This document shows, piece after piece, positions 14,401-23,242 of a stretch of DNA of 64,000 nucleotides. How positions within the stretch are numbered: the stretch's first letter is position 1; the number at the start of each line of letters is the position of its first letter. The stretch is from positions 20,345 through 84,344 of the forward strand of contig JAGAIM010000019.1 in NCBI GenBank assembly GCA_017626555.1, written 5' to 3'. Source of the DNA: Bacteroidales bacterium (GTDB lineage: Bacteria > Bacteroidota > Bacteroidia > Bacteroidales > UBA932). Below the pieces are notes generated by a model that saw only the letters and a list, made by a program, of their open reading frames with translations, was not told where the DNA came from and did no database searches. Both the position numbers and the translations under genes were made by a program.

Positions 14401-14438
14401 GAAAAGGCGCATCTCAGAATCCGATCTTGCGCCTTTTC
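14401..14438. terminator. Bidirectional terminator
   Basis: GAAAAGGCGCA / TGCGCCTTTTC 11-bp inverted repeat between convergent genes. Confidence 0.6.
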
Positions 14439-16057
14439 TCCTGCCTGGCAGTCATTGATTCATTCTGGCAATACTCGCGGATCTTTGCTTCTGATGGCTC
14501 CTGTCCGCTGAGGATGAGTTCCACTGTCCGTTTTCTGGCGATATTTTCGATCTGTCCGCCACTGAGATCGAAGTCTGTAGCCAATGAAAGGGCAATTGCA
14601 TCTGACAGACCTGGGATCATTGATTTCCATATATTCCTTTTGGCCTCGACAGTAGGACGTTCGAACTCTATCTTATATATGAAACGTCGCTCGAAGGCCT
14701 TATCAAGATTGCTTGTAAGATTTGTTGTGGCGATCATAATTCCTTCCAGTGTCTCCATTTCCTGAAGAATGATGTTCTGGAGGGAATTTTCCATTTTATC
14801 GACGGCCCTCTGTGCTCCTTCCTGACGTATTCCAAGGACGGCGTCAGCCTCATTGAAAAGAAGAATAGGCGCCACTTCCTTTTCTTTGACATATTCCCTG
14901 TAGCGGTCGAAGAGAGCCTTGATGTTCTGCTCGCTCTCCCCCACCCAGCAACTCTTTATCTGAGTCACATCCACCATCATAACATCCCTTCCGGTCAACC
15001 TTGCCAACTGATTGACTGTCTCGGTCTTTCCTGTACCTGGTGAGCCGTAGAACAAACAAGCGAATCCCTTCCGCATCCCGTTCTGCATAAGTCTTTCAGT
15101 CACCTGATTGAAATTCTCTGGCTTCAGAAGGTCGGCAAGCCTGTCTATCTGAGACTGTATGTGCGGATCATAATACATACTCTTTGCTGCGAATGACGTG
15201 TGAGGTATCAGATTCTTATCCTGCTTCTCGATCTTTTCCACCAGATCCATTCCAGGGAAGAGTTCCTCCTTTGCTTTGTCGGTCAGATGATAATAATTCG
15301 GATCCCGTACCCCTTCATCACTTTTAGTCTCGAATATGCCTTTCTGAATCAATGGCGAATCACCCGTCTTCAGTTCCTTCAGAATCCTCTTTACGGCTCT
15401 TTTTGAATCTATTATATCATCCCAGTCGTGCGTTCCGATCATATCGTCATCCTCATTTATCAACCTGTTTGCGAAAAGATGCAGCAATAAGAAGTCAAAA
15501 TTCTTGAAATTATATGAAGATGATACTTTGCAATAAGGCAGATGCATATTGGCAGAAATGAGTTCGCATAATTTCTCCTCACGGTTCCAGAGGGAAATGT
15601 CTTCCTCATCGAATATATCAGACAATCTATCGAAGAATTCATCGAATGTCAGATTGCTTATAGGCTTCGGAATATAGCATACATTCCTTCTTATGCTGTC
15701 AATCACCTCCATAGGCACGTTGAAATATCTTTCTTCCTTGCTGTTCCCTGCCTTCAGATATCCTTTTGCAGCAAGATCGTCAGCAACATTCATCATTGAA
15801 ATTATCTTTATATTCGAGGTATTGATCATTTCAGAAATGTCACTTATCCTGATCCTCCACGACGAACTCTTTTCAAAGAACAAAGACAAAAGCAGGGCCT
15901 CCTCTTTCGACAAAAGAAGTACTTTAGATAAATATTTCAGACTCTTCTCTGCCTCTTCATAGAACTTTTCACTCAGACTATGTTCCTTAGCCATCGATAC
16001 GACCTCTTCCATTGATGAAAGAATTGTCCTTGCGCTCTTTTTCCTGTTCTTTTCCAT
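14414..16057 (-). CDS. AAA+ family ATPase
   Basis: Walker A GSPGTGKT, Walker B variant LLFNEAD, TTN...LDKAFERRF, SGGQIENI; ATG at 16057 preferred because a promoter motif lies at 16078-16113. Confidence 0.88.
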   Translation of the reverse strand: MEKNRKKSARTILSSMEEVVSMAKEHSLSEKFYEEAEKSLKYLSKVLLLSKEEALLLSLFFEKSSSWRIRISDISEMINTSNIKIISMMNVADDLAAKGYLKAGNSKEERYFNVPMEVIDSIRRNVCYIPKPISNLTFDEFFDRLSDIFDEEDISLWNREEKLCELISANMHLPYCKVSSSYNFKNFDFLLLHLFANRLINEDDDMIGTHDWDDIIDSKRAVKRILKELKTGDSPLIQKGIFETKSDEGVRDPNYYHLTDKAKEELFPGMDLVEKIEKQDKNLIPHTSFAAKSMYYDPHIQSQIDRLADLLKPENFNQVTERLMQNGMRKGFACLFYGSPGTGKTETVNQLARLTGRDVMMVDVTQIKSCWVGESEQNIKALFDRYREYVKEKEVAPILLFNEADAVLGIRQEGAQRAVDKMENSLQNIILQEMETLEGIMIATTNLTSNLDKAFERRFIYKIEFERPTVEAKRNIWKSMIPGLSDAIALSLATDFDLSGGQIENIARKRTVELILSGQEPSEAKIREYCQNESMTARQEKRRKIGF

Positions 16058-16077: not shown

Positions 16078-16127
16078 TGCAAAGAAAATTCCTTTCGCTG
16101 CTAAAAAATGGCAGTTGAAAGAATTTT
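16078..16127 (-). promoter_or_regulatory. Promoter/operator, shared motif copy 1 (AAA ATPase gene)
   Basis: Minus strand AAAATTCTTTC..TGCC-N7-AGCA-N11-TTTCTTTGCA, 20 nt upstream of ATG. Confidence 0.6.
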
Positions 16128-16207
16128 ATCGAAATTTCTGGATTTCTCGCACAATTGGTGAATAAGAACAATTATTTTTGCAATATAAACAAATACAAAG
16201 TATCGTT

Positions 16208-16618
16208 ATGGAAATACAGAAGACCCCGCATAATATTGAGAAGTATAAGGATCATTATTCTGAATCCGGCCTATTCGCCAAGATCGGAAAGGTATTCAAA
16301 AAGGCCGGAATGAAGGCCGTTTATTATGTTCTGCTGCTTTATTATGTTCTTATTGATGAGAATACTTCGTGGGAACATAAAGGTATCATTCTCGGGGCTT
16401 TAGGCTATTTTATACTTCCTGTCGATCTTCTGCCGGACTTTATCCCGTTGGCAGGATATACAGACGATATTGCGGCTCTTGCAGCCTGCATCAAGACAAT
16501 TATGAAGAATATAACTCCTTCCATAAAGCGTAAAGCCGTTCAGAAACTTGCAGACTGGTTCACAGATGTAGAGTACAGCAAGATGGAAGAATATGATGAG
16601 GAGATAAATAAGGATTGA
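16208..16618 (+). CDS. YkvA / DUF1232 family membrane protein
   Basis: KGIILGALGYFILPVDLLPDFIPLAGYTDD motif; TATTTTTG promoter-like element upstream. Confidence 0.88.
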   Translation: MEIQKTPHNIEKYKDHYSESGLFAKIGKVFKKAGMKAVYYVLLLYYVLIDENTSWEHKGIILGALGYFILPVDLLPDFIPLAGYTDDIAALAACIKTIMKNITPSIKRKAVQKLADWFTDVEYSKMEEYDEEINKD

Positions 16619-16660
16619 TAATCCTTTTTCAGATCCTCCGCTTGGTTGAAGATTATTTGA

Positions 16661-16710
16661 AAAGTCCTTTATACTGCCTATATTTGGCAACAAAAAGGAC
16701 TTTCTTTGCA
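16661..16710 (+). promoter_or_regulatory. Promoter/operator, shared motif copy 2 (WYL gene)
   Basis: AAAGTCCTTT/AAAGGACTTT perfect 10-bp inverted repeat enclosing TGCC-N7-GGCA, then N11-TTTCTTTGCA. Confidence 0.65.
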
Positions 16711-16733
16711 TCATAAACCAAAATACAGGACTT

Positions 16734-17648
16734 ATGGCTAAGAATTATTTCAACAGGTACATCTGGCTGATAGACTTGATCCAGAGGAGTGGACATATAT
16801 CTTTTGAAAATATTGACCGCGCGTGGCGTCGCAGTTCGCTTAATCCAGATGGAGAGAGGCTCAGCGAGAGGACTTTCTTCAATCATAAGGATGCGATTTT
16901 CGACACTTTCGGAATAGAAATAAAATGTGACCGATCACTTGGGTATTATATTAATAATGAGGAAGATATCGAATCTGATTCCCTGAAGAACTGGATGCTA
17001 CAGTCTCTTTCGCTCAACAGCATTATGAATGAAGGCTCAGATCTTCGTGACAGAATCATCTGCGAGGATATTCCTTCAAGTCAGAAGTGGCTGCCGGATA
17101 TTATGGCAGCAATGAGGGACGGAAAATGCCTGATGATGACATACCAGGGTTTTACGAAAGATTCGCCGAATACCTTTGAAATTGCCCCATATTGCCTGAA
17201 GTACTTCAAACAAAGATGGTATATTCTGGCACGTACAGAAAAATTCCCCGAGGGCATATATTCATTGGACAGGATAAAGGATCTGCATCCGACAGACCAC
17301 ACCTTCAAACTGCCTAAAGGATATGAACCGAAGGATACCTTCAGGAAACTTTACGGTGTCATTCTCGACAAAGGGCCTGTTGAGACGGTGATTCTCCGCG
17401 TAGAAGAAAGTCAGGTGAAGTATTACCGTACCCTACCTCTGCATCATTCTCAGGAAGAATTGGAGTCCGGCGACGGATATACCGATTTCAGTTACAGGCT
17501 TGTGCCGACTTTCGATTTCAGCCGTGAAATCTTATCCAAGGGAATGTATGCTGAAGTCATATCACCGCTGTGGCTCCGTAGAGAGATTGCGGAAGAAATG
17601 CGTCAGGCAGCCAGGATGTATAATGATATACCGGAGGATGAAGAATGA
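16734..17648 (+). CDS. WYL-domain transcriptional regulator (wHTH-WYL-WCX)
   Basis: N-terminal HTH (LSERTFFNHKDAI), PYCLKYFKQRWYILA, YSLDRI, C-terminal EVISPLWLR. Confidence 0.92.
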   Translation: MAKNYFNRYIWLIDLIQRSGHISFENIDRAWRRSSLNPDGERLSERTFFNHKDAIFDTFGIEIKCDRSLGYYINNEEDIESDSLKNWMLQSLSLNSIMNEGSDLRDRIICEDIPSSQKWLPDIMAAMRDGKCLMMTYQGFTKDSPNTFEIAPYCLKYFKQRWYILARTEKFPEGIYSLDRIKDLHPTDHTFKLPKGYEPKDTFRKLYGVILDKGPVETVILRVEESQVKYYRTLPLHHSQEELESGDGYTDFSYRLVPTFDFSREILSKGMYAEVISPLWLRREIAEEMRQAARMYNDIPEDEE

Positions 17649-18184
17649 AAGATTTCATTGCAATAGATTTTGAGACTGCAAACGAGTGTCCTTCAAGTGT
17701 GTGCAGCATAGGAGCCGTACTTGTAAGGAACGGCAATATAGAAAGAACGTTCTACAGTCTCATCAAGCCGGAGCCGGACTATTACAAATGGTTCTGTCAG
17801 AATGTCCACGGACTCGGCCACGCAGACACTGATGATGCTGATGTATTCCCTTTAGTCTGGAAAAGGCTTGAGCAGGAACTTCTGGACGGGATTCCGATTC
17901 TTTCCGAGGACACATCTGAAGATGAGGAAGCATTACCTCTTGTCGCCCATAATGCAGGTTTTGACAGCAGATGTCTCCGTGATGTATTCAGATGTTACTG
18001 TATGGACTATCCGGAATATGTATTCCACGATACTTTGACCGCTGCCAGAAAGCATTTCTGCGGCACACTTGATAACCATCAACTCCAGACTGTCGCGGCA
18101 GCCTGCGGTTACGACCTGACCAATCACCACCACGCACTGGCCGATGCTGAGGCCTGTGCCTGGATAGCAAGGGAGATATTATAA
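17645..18184 (+). CDS. DEDDh 3'-5' exonuclease
   Basis: AIDFETAN, VAHNAGFD, HHALADA; ATGA overlap with the WYL gene. Confidence 0.92.
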   Translation: MKDFIAIDFETANECPSSVCSIGAVLVRNGNIERTFYSLIKPEPDYYKWFCQNVHGLGHADTDDADVFPLVWKRLEQELLDGIPILSEDTSEDEEALPLVAHNAGFDSRCLRDVFRCYCMDYPEYVFHDTLTAARKHFCGTLDNHQLQTVAAACGYDLTNHHHALADAEACAWIAREIL

Positions 18185-19087
18185 ATGACGAGAAGTTCCA
18201 TTACCGGCCATCTTTCGGCCTTCATAGCATACGCCATATTCGGCTTCAACATCATTGTCTGCAAAGACCTCACAAGCGGGAATCTCATTCCGCCGCTCGG
18301 GATCTTTACATTGAGATCTCTTGTTGCGGGCGCCTTGTTTTGGATAGTGTCTCTGTTTCTTCCAAAAGAGAAAGTCGAGCGGAAAGACTATATCCGTATT
18401 TTTGCTGCATCTCTCCTGGGCTTCTTTACCTGCCAGGTCACTTTCCTTGTCGGCATACCGTACATTACACCGATGGACTGTTCGATTCTCACGGCAATGT
18501 CACCGATATATACTATGGCCATAGCGGCAATTGTCATAAAAGAGCCGATAACCATACAGAAAGCAGCAGGGGTAGCGATCAGTTTCATTGGCATCATCTA
18601 TCTGATAGTCAGCAGGGTGGCGGCTCCTGGCGGTGTTTCGGAGAGTACTCCGTTCGGCATCGTGATGATAATTCTGAACAGTCTGAGTTTCTCGATGTAT
18701 CTGGGAATCTTCAAACCATTGATATCCAAGTACTCTGCTGTAACGTTTATGAAGTGGATATTCCTTTTCTCGGCCCTTGTTTCTGTTCCGCTTTCGCTCA
18801 AAGGACTGACGCAAGTTCAATGGGCAGCGATACCTTCCATCCAATATGCCGAACTTGCATACCTGATAATCCTCGCCACTTTCGTTACATATTTTCTCAT
18901 TCCAGTTGCACAAAAGAGAATCAGGCCGACACTTGTCAGTATGTACAGTTACATCCAGCCGATAATTGCCATCCTGGTCAGCATCGTCATCGGAATGGAC
19001 CATCTCACCTGGCAGAAAGTGCTTGCCGCTGCAATGGTCTTCGGCGGAGTCATCATTGTAAGTTACAGTCGCAGCGCCGGCAGATAA
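18185..19087 (+). CDS. EamA/DMT family transporter
   Basis: About 10 TM in two repeats; typical YSYIQPIIA. Confidence 0.88.
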   Translation: MTRSSITGHLSAFIAYAIFGFNIIVCKDLTSGNLIPPLGIFTLRSLVAGALFWIVSLFLPKEKVERKDYIRIFAASLLGFFTCQVTFLVGIPYITPMDCSILTAMSPIYTMAIAAIVIKEPITIQKAAGVAISFIGIIYLIVSRVAAPGGVSESTPFGIVMIILNSLSFSMYLGIFKPLISKYSAVTFMKWIFLFSALVSVPLSLKGLTQVQWAAIPSIQYAELAYLIILATFVTYFLIPVAQKRIRPTLVSMYSYIQPIIAILVSIVIGMDHLTWQKVLAAAMVFGGVIIVSYSRSAGR

Positions 19088-19154
19088 TTCCAGATTTGAA
19101 TCTGTTAAGATAATCAGGCACATTTTTCAAAAAATTGTGTATCTTTGTATTGAT

Positions 19155-19844
19155 ATGATTACATCCAGAACATACCATTCGCTTCATCTTGACATCGCTG
19201 CAGCAGATTCAAGCAATATCATTTATTTGCTTCTTCCGCAAAGGCTTCAAGAAGACGAACTTATATTGCTTGAAGAACTATCGGTCAGATTCGGATCGAA
19301 TATCGTGTCCATATCTGGTATGGAATGGAAGTCTGACCTGACTCCTTGGAAGGCTCCGGCAGTTAAAGAAGGAGAATTCGCAGGACAGGCAAGTCAGTTT
19401 CTGGAACGTCTTAAGGATGACCTTTTCTTCAATCTTGAGAATTCACTGCAGATCAGGAAGCCAAAGAGATATCTTATGGGATTATCATTGGCAGGAATGT
19501 TCGCTGTGTGGTGCGCTCTCAGAAAATCCCTCTTTGAAGGAGTCGCATCCATTTCTGGATCATTCTGGTATGATGGGTTCACGCAGTGGCTTGAAAAACA
19601 GGATGAACTCAAGTGTGTACACTTCTATATCAGCCTCGGAGAGAAAGAAAATGAAACCAAGGTAAAGAGGTTTGCCAACATAGAAGAGGACACAATGCTT
19701 GTGGTTGAAACCCTTATGGCCAAGGGTGCAGAGGTAACCTTTGAGATGACAGAAGGTGGCCACAACTCCCCTATCATTCCGCGTATCGAGAAATCATTAT
19801 CATCTTTGCTCGGAAATCATCATTTTGAATCTGAAACTTTCTAG
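19155..19844 (+). CDS. Alpha/beta hydrolase (esterase-like)
   Basis: GLSLAG nucleophile elbow, SGSFWY, EGGH; TATCTTTG at 19140-19147 implies ATG 19155 and a near-leaderless mRNA. Confidence 0.8.
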   Translation: MITSRTYHSLHLDIAAADSSNIIYLLLPQRLQEDELILLEELSVRFGSNIVSISGMEWKSDLTPWKAPAVKEGEFAGQASQFLERLKDDLFFNLENSLQIRKPKRYLMGLSLAGMFAVWCALRKSLFEGVASISGSFWYDGFTQWLEKQDELKCVHFYISLGEKENETKVKRFANIEEDTMLVVETLMAKGAEVTFEMTEGGHNSPIIPRIEKSLSSLLGNHHFESETF

Positions 19845-19861
19845 GCGTATCTCTATAATAG

Positions 19862-19897
19862 TGCCACTTTTCTGCATTTCTGTTTCGTTTCTTTGCA
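19862..19897 (+). promoter_or_regulatory. Promoter/operator, shared motif copy 3 (YgjP-like gene)
   Basis: TGCC-N7-TGCA-N11-TTTCTTTGCA, same spacing as copies 1 and 2. Confidence 0.5.
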
Positions 19898-19910: not shown

Positions 19911-20714
19911 ATGAACGCAACAACGAAAAAAGAGATTTACGAAATCATCGGGCAGGCAAAGATTCTGGAAGGTCTTATGAATGAACTGGAATCCCCTCTG
20001 ACCGGGAAGCAGAAAAGCAATCTTGCCGAGGAAGAGTTCTTTATAGACTCAGCCTTGTGTCAGGCTGGTTGTATCAGTGATATTATCTCGCGCATTGATT
20101 CTGCCCTACATCACCCTGAGCAATATCCTGAACCGGAACCATTACCTCCTTACGATGGAAATGCTGAATCCGTTTATATCGGGTTATGTGGCATCAGAGA
20201 CGATTGGAAAAGTCTTTATTATTCCGACGCAGCCGATAAAAGAACTAGACAGTTTCTTTTTGCCAGTCATCACTTTACCCGATGGACAGGTGAGATGTTT
20301 AAATATACGGAACATCTTGGCTGCAAATATGGTCTTATGCCGGCCGAGGTCAGGATTGGAGGTATCCGGATGAGGGATTTAGGGGCATATAACGACAAAA
20401 CCGGCGGAATCACATTCAACAGGCGACTTATCCGTGACCCTGCACAAGCGATGATTACTGTTATTCACGAACTCTGCCACGTGCGTTATCCCGACCACAG
20501 CAGGGAATTCTGGCAGTTGTACGAAGATGTCTGTATCAGTGAAGGAATCCTTCTGGAAAGGGTTCTTGGAGAGAGAAAAAGCCTGAGGGAACTGAAGAAG
20601 GATATGATACCTTACAGATGGAAGCCTGAGGTTGACTACTTCACGGACAACGAGAAAATCACGATAGAGAAAATACTGAAAAATACAAAGCACGGCAGCA
20701 AATCCTTTGTCTGA
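19911..20714 (+). CDS. YgjP/M48-like (DUF45-type) zinc metallopeptidase with N-terminal extension
   Basis: ITFNRRLI...VIHELCHVRYPDHSREFW. Confidence 0.75.
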   Translation: MNATTKKEIYEIIGQAKILEGLMNELESPLTGKQKSNLAEEEFFIDSALCQAGCISDIISRIDSALHHPEQYPEPEPLPPYDGNAESVYIGLCGIRDDWKSLYYSDAADKRTRQFLFASHHFTRWTGEMFKYTEHLGCKYGLMPAEVRIGGIRMRDLGAYNDKTGGITFNRRLIRDPAQAMITVIHELCHVRYPDHSREFWQLYEDVCISEGILLERVLGERKSLRELKKDMIPYRWKPEVDYFTDNEKITIEKILKNTKHGSKSFV

Positions 20715-20926: not shown

Positions 20927-23242
20927 ATGAAAACCGGTCAGACAGATAAGTTTCACTTAAAGGAGATTGCATCTTGGGATAAAAGTATAATACCAGATCT
21001 TCAGAGAGGCCTGGTATGGAAACCCCGTCAGATGGAATTATTATGGGATTCGATTCTCAGAGGTTTCCCTATAGGTTCGTTCATATTTGCCGAGGCTACA
21101 GATGGTAAGGATTATCTGATGGACGGGCAACAACGATTCAATACCATTTCTTTAGGATTCAAAGATCCGGAAGAGGACGGAAATCCATCGTGCATTCTCT
21201 GGATCGATCTCGAGCCAAAGGGAAAGACTTCAAGAAAGTATTGGATCAAGGCAACAACAATATCGCATCCTTGGGGATATGCCAACAACGACGATTGCAG
21301 TACCTTGAGTGCAGCACAAAGACGCGAAGCATTAAGTTTATATGGAATAGAAGGCAATATCTATCAGAATCCTATATCTTTATATGATGCTTGGCCTTCT
21401 GAAGCAGGATTTCCTGTCCCCCTATCCTGTATTCTTAATTCAGATGTAGAGGATGAAAATGCTTTTGAAAAAAGTCTGGAAGCCAATTTCAGAAAAGCCC
21501 GTAATAAATTCAAAAAATTGCAATCCCTTGGCAATGAGGATATTAAACAATTGACGAAGCAGATATCATCATCTTATTATACAGTCGTCAAAAGAATGTA
21601 TGATTATACTGTCGGCTATTCAAAATTAAGCAAAGAAGTGTTCCAAGATAATACAGAAGATTCTGTGCAGAACACTTCCACTGCCCTTGAAGTCTTGTTT
21701 ACCAGATTGAATACAGGAGGCACGCAGATCACATCGGAAGAATTGTTTTATTCTGCCATAAAATCATATTGGGGAGAAATAAAGGAAATCAATGATGAAT
21801 TAGCCGGAAGATATCACGTGCCGGCAGTCAAACTGGCCATCCTTTCATTCCGCCTCTACAAGACATTGCAGTCCGGTATATATGAAAATGACCTCAGTAT
21901 TTTGAAAATACGTGAGTTGGCCACTGCAGATGTTGATGACAAATCCAGGATAATAGAATTCTATAAGACGGAATTAGAGGACGTGCTGGCAGATATCAGT
22001 GCGTATTTTGACGATGAACGAATCCCGGCAATCATTAAAACCAGCCTGGTAAGAAATTCTACAGATGTTTTTCTTTTAATGATGTACTTGAGGAAGCGTC
22101 ACGCTGATCTGGATGCATCAAAAGCCCTAGGTCTTATGCTGTATCTGCATTGGTTTGCTGTTGACAGACATAAGCGGAAGGCAGTGAAATGCATCTTTGA
22201 CGAATGTGTGAAGGAGGATGATAATGTGGATGTTTACGCTTCTATTCAACGGGGAATTTCCAATTGTCTTTTGAATGATTGGATTACGTTTCCTGTCACT
22301 CCTGATACACTGAGAGAAAACATCAGATATTTGTGCAATCCTGATCAAAAATTTGAATTGCCGGATTCGGCTCTTTGGACAGACACATTCAATGTCGTAA
22401 CGAATAATGGTTCATATTCGAACGAGATGCTGCTTCTTGCCCAAAAAGACTATATAAATGCGAAGTTTCCACAATATGATCCAGGAAACGAGTCAATGTG
22501 GCAGGAACATAACCGGCCGTGGGATTTTGATCATATAATACCGCAGGAATGGATAGCAGGCCGCAGAAGATATGGAATATACCAAGGCTTCTGCAAAAAC
22601 TGGTTGAATAATATAGGAAATTTCGCTGCAATTCCATTCGAATTGAACAGGGCGAAGAAAAATGAGAATGATTTTGAGGAATATACCCGAAACAGTGAAA
22701 AATTATTGTTTGACTGGAATAAGTATAAAGAGATCAAGGAGAATCTGATAGATGATAAGCAGTCCGCTATATTATTTGCCGAAACCACTGCGGATAGAAT
22801 GCTGGAAATATATTCCAGGATATATTCCCTCGTGCAACCGCTTCTTGATTTCGAAGCCGACAGACTTTGTGAATCTGCCTTTAAGAGAAAAGAATTATTC
22901 GACAAGATACGGGGGATATTTAAAGATGCCGTAGTCTCATTTGTAGTAAACAACAAGGAATATGAGATTGATGAACACGACATCATCAACTGGAACAGGG
23001 ACTGGATGTCGATAGGTATAGTCCGGGGCTCATATTACTATTGTCTGACGACCTCTCCGCATTATATCAACAAAGAAATAGGTGTCAGAAGAGCGCCCGA
23101 GCAGATGAAGACTGTTATGCCCGGGCACAGACATATTGACGGATACATTTATGACGAAGACAATCCTTGGTGGTATTGCTATAAACTTATTCGGACCGAT
23201 GATGCCGATATTATGATAGATGAGTTAAGCAAGTTGGTTTAG
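20927..23242 (+). CDS. GmrSD-like DUF262 + HNH (DUF1524-type) nuclease
   Basis: PDLQRGLVW, LMDGQQR, FTRLNTGG (DUF262); DFDHIIPQ...NIGN...N (HNH); AT-rich. Confidence 0.85.
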   Translation: MKTGQTDKFHLKEIASWDKSIIPDLQRGLVWKPRQMELLWDSILRGFPIGSFIFAEATDGKDYLMDGQQRFNTISLGFKDPEEDGNPSCILWIDLEPKGKTSRKYWIKATTISHPWGYANNDDCSTLSAAQRREALSLYGIEGNIYQNPISLYDAWPSEAGFPVPLSCILNSDVEDENAFEKSLEANFRKARNKFKKLQSLGNEDIKQLTKQISSSYYTVVKRMYDYTVGYSKLSKEVFQDNTEDSVQNTSTALEVLFTRLNTGGTQITSEELFYSAIKSYWGEIKEINDELAGRYHVPAVKLAILSFRLYKTLQSGIYENDLSILKIRELATADVDDKSRIIEFYKTELEDVLADISAYFDDERIPAIIKTSLVRNSTDVFLLMMYLRKRHADLDASKALGLMLYLHWFAVDRHKRKAVKCIFDECVKEDDNVDVYASIQRGISNCLLNDWITFPVTPDTLRENIRYLCNPDQKFELPDSALWTDTFNVVTNNGSYSNEMLLLAQKDYINAKFPQYDPGNESMWQEHNRPWDFDHIIPQEWIAGRRRYGIYQGFCKNWLNNIGNFAAIPFELNRAKKNENDFEEYTRNSEKLLFDWNKYKEIKENLIDDKQSAILFAETTADRMLEIYSRIYSLVQPLLDFEADRLCESAFKRKELFDKIRGIFKDAVVSFVVNNKEYEIDEHDIINWNRDWMSIGIVRGSYYYCLTTSPHYINKEIGVRRAPEQMKTVMPGHRHIDGYIYDEDNPWWYCYKLIRTDDADIMIDELSKLV

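Follow-up and report, generated by a model that had tools for sequence, protein, structure and literature searches.

A stretch of 64,000 nucleotides (nt) from a Bacteroidales bacterium (GTDB lineage UBA932; GenBank assembly GCA_017626555.1, contig JAGAIM010000019.1, positions 20,345 to 84,344 of the forward strand), hereafter the window, holds three exact copies of the motif TGCC-N7-DGCA-N11-TTTCTTTGCA, at 16078-16113 (minus strand), 16675-16710 (plus strand) and 19862-19897 (plus strand). They lie in the promoters of a gene for an AAA+ ATPase, of an operon encoding a WYL-domain regulator and an exonuclease, and of a gene for a YgjP-like peptidase. In what follows, the palindromic left part of the motif is called the operator and its right end the -7 box. 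The genes and promoter elements concerned are these, in window coordinates:

14414..16057, minus strand: AAA+ ATPase of 547 amino acids (aa), with a classical-clade AAA domain at residues 334-466 (Pfam AAA, 1.6e-22)
16080..16087, minus strand: -7 box of the AAA promoter, TTTCTTTG, 11 nt past the operator core
16085..16127: inverted repeat extended around the AAA operator, arms 16085-16101 and 16111-16127
16097..16115, minus strand: operator of the AAA ATPase promoter, ACTGCCATTTTTTAGCAGC, which fits the 19-bp palindrome profile built from 61 distinct sites
16661..16703: inverted repeat extended around the WYL operator, AAAGTCCTTT...AAAGGACTTT, with 18-nt arms at 16661-16678 and 16686-16703
16673..16691, plus strand: operator of the WYL-exonuclease operon, ACTGCCTATATTTGGCAAC, a match to the motif
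16701..16708, plus strand: -7 box of the WYL promoter, TTTCTTTG
16734..17648, plus strand: DriD-like regulator of 304 aa with a predicted winged helix-turn-helix (wHTH) followed by WYL and WCX domains, identified from Pfam (WYL and WCX), PDB sequence matches, an AlphaFold2 (AF2) model and Foldseek
17645..18184, plus strand: DEDDh (DnaQ/RNase T-like) 3'-5' exonuclease, whose start overlaps the WYL stop by 4 nt (ATGA)
19860..19878, plus strand: operator of the YgjP-like gene, AGTGCCACTTTTCTGCATT, weak at its outer positions and kept in a 99%-identical strain (locus L119)
19888..19895, plus strand: -7 box of the YgjP-like promoter, TTTCTTTG
19911..20714, plus strand: YgjP-like/WLM-like zinc metallopeptidase of 267 aa (Pfam YgjP-like, 3.2e-11; WLM, 1.2e-4)

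With up to two mismatches allowed, the window still yields only these three copies. The number expected per window, from 100 dinucleotide-preserving shuffles, is 0.01, and none of the 100 shuffles reached three. The original prediction, made from the letters of the window alone, had placed the motif at exactly these promoters, 13-23 nt upstream of the genes. This is where we find it: once two start codons were corrected (to 16057 for the AAA ATPase and 19911 for the YgjP-like gene), the distance from motif end to ATG is 20 nt for the AAA ATPase, 23 nt for WYL and 13 nt for the YgjP-like gene. The four gene identities (AAA, WYL, exonuclease and YgjP-like) all hold by Pfam and sequence, and both pairs of arms of the larger inverted repeats described around the first two sites are present. 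The flanks beyond the operator are also weakly symmetric in the 61-site profile.

Distribution and architecture of the module

A genome-wide motif scan had been proposed as a check. The host genome is a 3.09-Mb assembly of 222 contigs, in which the window occupies positions 20345-84344 of contig C58. A 99% match identifies the organism as a species of Candidatus Cryptobacteroides. It contains eight strict copies of the motif against 0.0003 expected, all of them 13-33 nt upstream of a start codon. The five copies outside the window are on short contigs and precede two WYL paralogues, two copies of a 172-aa protein that we call P175 and one GyrB-like protein of 353 aa. The N-termini of the two extra WYL paralogues are 93-94% identical, and their contigs break inside the gene. 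A looser pattern, TGCC-N7-N[GTA]CA-N11-T[AT][ATC]NTTTG, gave 14 matches against 0.5 expected, and its reversed control gave none. It adds the promoters of a DUF6557 gene and of a gene for a stand-alone DnaE finger domain and, as weaker candidates, sites before an AddB-like nuclease and a second DnaB paralogue.

Four contigs of 2.6-4.3 kb (C124, C134, C165 and C209) hold diverged second and third copies of a gene island. Between them they carry P175-WYL and WYL-exonuclease pairs, the GyrB fragment, the DnaE finger, a KaiC-like gene and the N-terminus of a YgjP-like protein, and they stop inside WYL or YgjP paralogues. It follows that the island either exists in several copies or varies between strains of the metagenome; it breaks the assembly.

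The module is also evident at loci chosen without regard to the motif. In the 90 nt upstream of the WYL gene at 37 loci picked by WYL protein homology alone (43-99% identity), the operator is present in 31. The near relatives read ACTGCCTAAATTTGGCAGTggAAAGaACTTTCTTTGCA and the more distant ones ACTGCCAcATTTTTwCAGTAAAAAGnGCTATCTTTGCa. The WYL-exonuclease pair itself is kept in 32 of the 37. A second set, of 80 further WYL loci (470 kb), contains 111 modules against 0.08 expected: 56 before WYL, 17 before AAA, 11 before P175 and 4 before the GyrB fragment. The AAA, P175, GyrB-fragment and YgjP-like genes recur beside the WYL-exonuclease pair in varying order, each with a module of its own. Conservation upstream of orthologous WYL genes, another check that had been named, thus extends down to about 45% protein identity, with 31/37 and 56/80 loci carrying the motif in the two sets.

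The 61 distinct sites define a 19-bp palindrome, ACTGCCA-N5-TGGCAGT, with the core TGCC-N7-GGCA. Its conservation is mirror-symmetric (A/T, C/G, T/A, G/C and C/G pairs) around an AT-rich centre. Past the palindrome come an A-rich spacer and the string T[A/T]TCTTTGCA, in which we recognise the sigma-A -7 box of Bacteroidetes, TAnnTTTG, either intact or with one base changed. Among 83 operator-like matches with a -7-like box within 40 nt, the spacing between the two is 11 nt in 65, the rest being scattered. The centre of the palindrome is 19 bp upstream of the first base of the -7 box. This would put it at roughly -30 to -33, the place of the -33 element, the exact value depending on where transcription starts. 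Because the 11-nt spacing predominates to this degree, and because 111 modules stand against 0.08 expected, the feature is a composite promoter, in which an operator is fused to a promoter at one fixed register.

Many WYL promoters also carry a second TGCC-N7-GGCA palindrome upstream of the first (C134:381-440, C165:416-475, and loci L125, L126, L128, L135, L148 and L149), the distance between the two centres being 29 bp in one clade and 18 bp in another. The WYL promoter of the window has no second palindrome.

Repetition of this kind could in principle reflect a promoter cassette that was duplicated within a mobile island and has no regulatory meaning. The sites do occur in a multi-copy, assembly-breaking island (C124, C134, C165, C209), and some spacers, such as GAGGTCTTTGT, are nearly identical between genomes. 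What is conserved between sites, however, is only the palindrome and the -7 box, while spacers and flanks differ; the constrained positions form a palindrome; and the pattern persists at 45-77% protein identity, where neutral DNA would have decayed. We regard mere duplication as very improbable.

In a strict motif-first scan of 185,579 species genomes we recovered at least 118 stretches, where chance would give about 52 over the entire collection. The matches listed come mostly from Bacteroidales metagenome-assembled genomes, and the families downstream among them are P175 (12), AAA (11), a 212-aa family (7), WYL (4), PDDEXK_4 (3), HAD_SAK_2 (3) and others. A WYL homologue (E<=1e-40) is present in 46 of 50 motif-bearing genomes and in 57 of 400 (14%) of an even Bacteroidales sample (Fisher p = 3e-29, uncorrected for phylogeny). 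A relaxed pattern run over 401 Bacteroidales genomes returned mostly promoter noise.

The layout is shared by hundreds of related genomes. Carriers of the operator are almost entirely uncultured gut and rumen lineages, and no cultured carrier is found among the best 80 of 272 WYL loci. Nine of these 80 (L211, L229, L236, L240, L241, L243, L246, L247 and L250) come from bins labelled Lachnospiraceae, Butyricicoccaceae, Gastranaerophilales, Methanomethylophilaceae or similar, mostly H07xxx/G02xxx 'cleanbin' records. These contigs are probably mis-binned, as is typical for islands of odd coverage or composition.

The WYL protein and its link to the operator

In the 304-aa regulator, Pfam recognises a WYL domain (PF13280, E 1e-10, residues 120-185), which contains an invariant FKQRWY strand, and a WCX C-terminal dimerisation domain (PF25583, E 2.8e-10, residues 216-293). 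The N-terminal part has no Pfam match. The AF2 model, with a mean predicted local distance difference test (pLDDT) of 72.7 and a disordered linker at residues 76-114, folds this part into helices at 2-19, 24-32 and 45-59 and a beta hairpin at 63-73 (pLDDT 80-90), which by the model is a winged helix-turn-helix. Foldseek ranks complexes of DriD with DNA and single-stranded DNA (ssDNA) first (8tp8, E 1.7e-13), followed by PafBC, CapW and BrxR, with full-length alignments to DNA-bound DriD. A sequence search of the PDB agrees, matching the regulator to DriD.

The presumed recognition-helix region, SERTFFNHKDAI, does not vary within the clade that has kept the TGCC/GGCA operator. A 40%-identical paralogue, found at L255/L256 on two IMG/VR contigs (position ~9947), has a different helix and a different palindrome, CTTGTG-N11-CACAAG, the centre of which is still 19 bp from its TATCTTTG box. 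Another, unrelated WYL family occurs in the same loci, and the motif was not found with it. These sequence relationships lead us to infer that the local WYL protein binds the 19-bp palindrome, as a predicted dimer. The earlier proposal that the protein regulates both its own gene and the neighbouring targets is strengthened by the module's place before WYL and before recurrent target families, by the co-occurrence with WYL in 46 of 50 genomes and by this paralogue, in which the operator sequence changes together with the recognition helix and its position does not.

Could a factor other than the WYL protein read the motif, such as an alternative sigma factor, sigma-54, or another transcription factor that travels with the island? 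The island holds many uncharacterised genes, and the TGGCA/TTGCA strings superficially recall the -24/-12 elements of sigma-54. The half-sites and flanks are symmetric, though, and this indicates a dimeric DNA-binding protein rather than a sigma factor. Of the gene families, WYL alone is always found with the motif and also has the motif before its own gene, and the operator changes together with the WYL recognition helix. Hence we find another reader improbable. A sigma-54 promoter proper (TGGCAC-N5-TTGCW, with GG and GC 12 nt apart) was ruled out: the GG-to-GC offset here is 22 nt and not 12 nt, the palindrome is symmetric, and the downstream element is a normal sigma-A -7 box.

Proposed mode of action and comparison with known regulators

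The feature is real and highly non-random. Its best reading is an operator-promoter module that serves a DriD-like WYL regulator and its accessory regulon. In the mechanism that we propose, a homodimer of the local wHTH-WYL-WCX protein would bind ACTGCCA-N5-TGGCAGT and sit over the place of the -33 element, its centre 19 bp upstream of the Bacteroidetes sigma-A -7 box. From this fixed position it would activate RNA polymerase at sub-consensus -7 boxes (TTnCTTTG). The WYL and WCX domains, judged by homology, would bind a nucleic-acid ligand that turns the protein on, most likely short ssDNA arising from DNA damage or from the replication of phages or mobile elements. Taken as a whole, a DriD-like WYL regulator that activates an accessory regulon through composite promoters is the explanation we consider best, and we hold it to be probable with considerable room for doubt.

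DriD, an activator of the SOS-independent damage response of Caulobacter crescentus, is the best PDB match by both sequence and fold. Its operator, ATACGAC-N7-GTCGTAT (core CGAC-N7-GTCG), has an AT-rich centre and covers the -35 position, and its distance to the -10 element is the same at every promoter under its control (PMC10853764, PMC13004042). The resemblance to the present system is broad. Both regulators are single chains of ~300-330 aa; both have 4-bp core half-sites split by an AT-rich N7 (CGAC-N7-GTCG and TGCC-N7-GGCA) and a site in their own promoter; both operators are placed over -35/-33 at a set distance from -10/-7 (here 11 nt, in 65/83); and both regulons include an exonuclease and nucleases. 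The layout is that of DriD, moved onto the Bacteroidetes type of promoter. The two differ in that identity is only 16-22%, the operator sequence is not the same, and the promoter here has the Bacteroidetes sigma-A -7 element TAnnTTTG. Orthologues of recA, recJ, dnaG and didA are absent from the targets, and the regulon is an accessory, multi-copy island. Several of the arginines that contact ssDNA in DriD are also not conserved here.

Activation is favoured because the spacing is invariant, because the -7 boxes of the targets are weak relative to the consensus box of the regulator's promoter, and because the nearest relatives are activators. The original prediction had already taken a weak -7 box as a sign of activation. 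This stands for the targets and for the near clade; it does not extend to most WYL promoters, since the consensus TA of the box is present in 48 of 56 WYL promoters as against 26 of 61 target promoters (p = 1e-6). An example is given by loci that have both promoters, where that of AAA reads TTTCTTTG and that of WYL TATCTTTG. We consider it more likely than not that the regulator acts as an activator.

A set of observations weighs against our interpretation. The wHTH-WYL-WCX architecture is common to CapW and BrxR, which are palindrome-binding repressors (PMC11662680). The operator overlaps the core promoter, and a dimer over -33 could equally block sigma region 4. Only about 8% of the promoter-like TAnnTTTG sites of this genome have a TTTG at a gap of 19-20; a -33 TTTG being so rare, its absence from the module is uninformative, and we dropped it as an argument for activation. 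In three public metatranscriptome runs the region is represented by fragments in short assembled contigs, some of which cross the promoters, and 5' ends cannot be read from these. Shared ancestry makes the counts across genomes non-independent. In other Bacteroidales families the operator is mostly missing upstream of homologues at 38-47% identity, and so belongs to a subclade.

The ligand site gives a mixed picture. Four of the residues that contact ssDNA in DriD have kept equivalents in the regulator (Y168, S172, Y192 and W206, corresponding to Y137, T141, W162 and Y176), and R161 matches the first arginine of the CapW RWHVR motif. On the opposing side, the DriD contacts R176, R178 and R207 are not aligned with basic residues, and the equivalent of R204, kept in 17 of 20 orthologues, is deleted in the window's copy. 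At residues ~172-176 that copy reads ...FPEG-IYSLDR, as against ...PRIYxLDR in 17/20 orthologues. The other WYL paralogues, on the short contigs, may be the ligand-competent ones. By homology, the ligand would most likely be ssDNA.

The same regulator and operator could instead form a repressor of the CapW/BrxR type, in which the dimer over -33 blocks RNA polymerase until ssDNA releases it and the island is de-repressed. In several WYL promoters a further operator lies 18 or 29 bp upstream, an arrangement often found in genes that are auto-repressed, and most WYL promoters have a perfect TAnnTTTG box. A GmrSD-type defence gene adjoins, and the WYL strand has an RW motif similar to RWHVR of CapW. 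Repressor operators usually vary in position, however, whereas the spacing here is invariant over more than 60 distinct promoters and in the paralogue with another operator. The -7 boxes of the targets are sub-consensus significantly more often than those of the regulator gene, and the activators DriD and PafBC are closer than CapW and BrxR by sequence and fold. We therefore judge repression unlikely, yet a serious competitor to activation.

As systems, CapW and BrxR, repressors of CBASS and BREX, share with the present one the domain architecture, ~20-bp palindromic operators in promoters and an ssDNA ligand (PMC11662680), and also the association with defence genes, represented here by the GmrSD neighbours. 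They differ in repressing a single adjacent operon, whereas here the promoters are many and dispersed, with one operator-to-box geometry throughout and weak boxes at the targets; by fold score they are also more distant than DriD. PafBC of Actinobacteria and DdaA of Moraxellaceae are activators of the WYL family that take the place of LexA or act beside it in the control of DNA-damage genes; DdaA governs anti-phage genes as well (PMC11804915, PMC12392091). As in the present case, their promoters have no normal -35 element and carry the activator's element at a fixed position. PafBC, unlike the regulator described here, is a heterodimer-like fusion, recognises a non-palindromic element and binds DNA only when RNA polymerase is present. 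Both PafBC and DdaA are core, clade-wide regulators of canonical repair genes, whereas the regulon here is patchy and non-canonical.

Outside the WYL family, the middle promoters of phage T4 offer a parallel, where the box of the activator MotA, centred near -30, stands in for the -35 element before many genes, always equally far from -10. MotA is an unrelated, phage-encoded protein and its box is non-palindromic. The WYL family studied here, by contrast, is nearly absent from viral collections: relatives occur on 2 of 2.9 million IMG/VR contigs and on a few unannotated virome fragments of 5-8 kb, for which reason we rejected phages as its main habitat.

Our literature search found no description of this module or its cargo, and no WYL-based transcription circuit responsive to damage or infection described for Bacteroidales. 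For a regulator of the DriD type paired with the unusual sigma-A promoter of Bacteroidetes, the module supplies an exact operator-promoter layout. Clear predictions, including for structural work on the Bacteroidetes RNA polymerase, follow from the constant 11-nt spacing and from the difference in -7 boxes between regulator and targets, and the module could serve as an inducible promoter part for engineering gut Bacteroides.

The accessory regulon and neighbouring genes

The regulon comprises the DnaQ-like exonuclease, the AAA+ ATPase, the zinc peptidase, a helical-repeat protein, nucleases, and truncated paralogues of GyrB, DnaE and FtsZ; recA, uvr or other canonical SOS genes are not among its members. 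It had been suggested that the system is a LexA-independent damage or phage response in Bacteroidales. In favour of this, no LexA gene was found in the genome: the only S24-peptidase open reading frame (C216:73374-73727, minus strand; 150 aa) scores 77 bits against a cut-off of 111. Since this frame matches no more than the C-terminal half of LexA, we class it as UmuD-like rather than as LexA. LexA groups are absent from Bacteroidales (PMC8565304). Against the suggestion, the system is confined to a subclade and has no genes of the recA/uvr type. An order-wide regulon was rejected, since among 40 genomes whose WYL homologue reaches E<=1e-40 only about 3 have the operator, and the more distant homologues mostly lack it. 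The subclade that bears it is present in perhaps a few per cent of Bacteroidales species. Patchy, island-like and so confined, the regulon is a small accessory gene island, often multi-copy, and not an order-wide substitute for LexA.

Its most frequent non-regulator member is P175 (172 aa; copies at C134:433-957 and C165:468-992), which has invariant tryptophans in a repeat of ~25 aa and is modelled by AF2 as an all-helical solenoid of short helices (pLDDT 92.5). P175 has no match in Pfam, NCBIfam or PADLOC, no named relative among 5.8 billion proteins and no fold match in the PDB (best E = 1.1). The GyrB fragment is the ATPase and transducer half, 42% identical to the 665-aa GyrB of the genome; it lacks the Toprim domain, has a 2-aa deletion in the ATP lid, and its Q335 is replaced. 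Two members are single DnaE domains, the finger domain alone (237 aa) and the PHP domain alone (296 aa). An FtsZ-like member (L016:2875-3825) is 33% identical to the FtsZ of the genome (on C126). The GLGAG T3 loop is missing, the GGGTGTG signature has become GGETGTD, and the protein stops short of the linker and C-terminal tail; it looks like a nucleotide-binding-impaired mimic of FtsZ. A DnaB_C/KaiC/RecA-like ATPase also belongs to the members.

The AAA+ ATPase has an orphan N-terminal part of 330 aa and weakly resembles IetA/IteA, CdvC and Cdc48, far under the family cut-offs (NCBIfam IteA score 86 against a cut-off of 510). Among PADLOC models, its AAA domain resembles IetA (E 6e-28, a partial match) and TRIP13, and the exonuclease resembles the Cas-associated DEDDh and PDC-S48 models. 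The partner proteins of IetA-, TRIP13-, Cas-DEDDh- or PDC-S48-type systems in the PADLOC models are not present. The HELCH motif of the YgjP-like peptidase is intact.

Of the weaker candidate sites, one (C216:64671-64704, minus strand) lies upstream of a 990-aa AddB-like PD-(D/E)XK nuclease and would bring a canonical repair gene into the regulon. It stays a candidate only: look-alike sites in G090 and G219 precede an unrelated 68-aa zinc-ribbon gene, and hence provide no evidence that the AddB site is conserved. The other (C167:3261-3294, plus strand) precedes another full-length DnaB paralogue, which shares 49% identity with the one on C22 and sits beside an SSB-like gene.

The cargo may serve repair, act as a brake on replication or division, or defend against phages. 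One speculation, which we would not bet on, is that the WYL switch controls a set of 'mimic' proteins, truncated and in part degenerate paralogues of essential proteins of replication, topology and division (the GyrB half, the DnaE finger, the DnaE PHP domain, the FtsZ-like protein, the DnaB_C/RecA-like ATPase and the DnaQ-like exonuclease). Induced by ssDNA together with an AAA+ unfoldase and a zinc peptidase, these might act as dominant-negative brakes that would freeze replication, supercoiling and division, in an inducible checkpoint or in abortive infection, or as decoys that soak up or detect phage inhibitors of those host machines. The cargo, with its uncharacterised proteins and truncated copies of GyrB, DnaE and FtsZ, is the more interesting part of the system and may point to an undescribed way of halting replication and division or of baiting phage inhibitors.

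Three further genes of the window are close to the module:

16208..16618, plus strand: DUF1232 gene between the divergent AAA and WYL promoters, with an ordinary TATTTTTG box and no operator
18185..19087, plus strand: EamA-family transporter, abutting the exonuclease gene
20927..23242, plus strand: GmrSD-type (DUF262) restriction-like protein (Pfam GmrSD_N), without an operator of its own and regarded as context only

The EamA transporter gene is probably co-transcribed with the exonuclease, to judge from their abutment, and the association was seen only in this species; an esterase gene is also in the neighbourhood. GmrSD-like genes also follow the WYL-exonuclease pair at locus L102. The DUF1232 gene is not part of the regulon. 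Across its stop codon, at 16598-16638 and just upstream of the WYL promoter, lies a hairpin with 19-nt arms, which may be a terminator that shields the WYL promoter from read-through.

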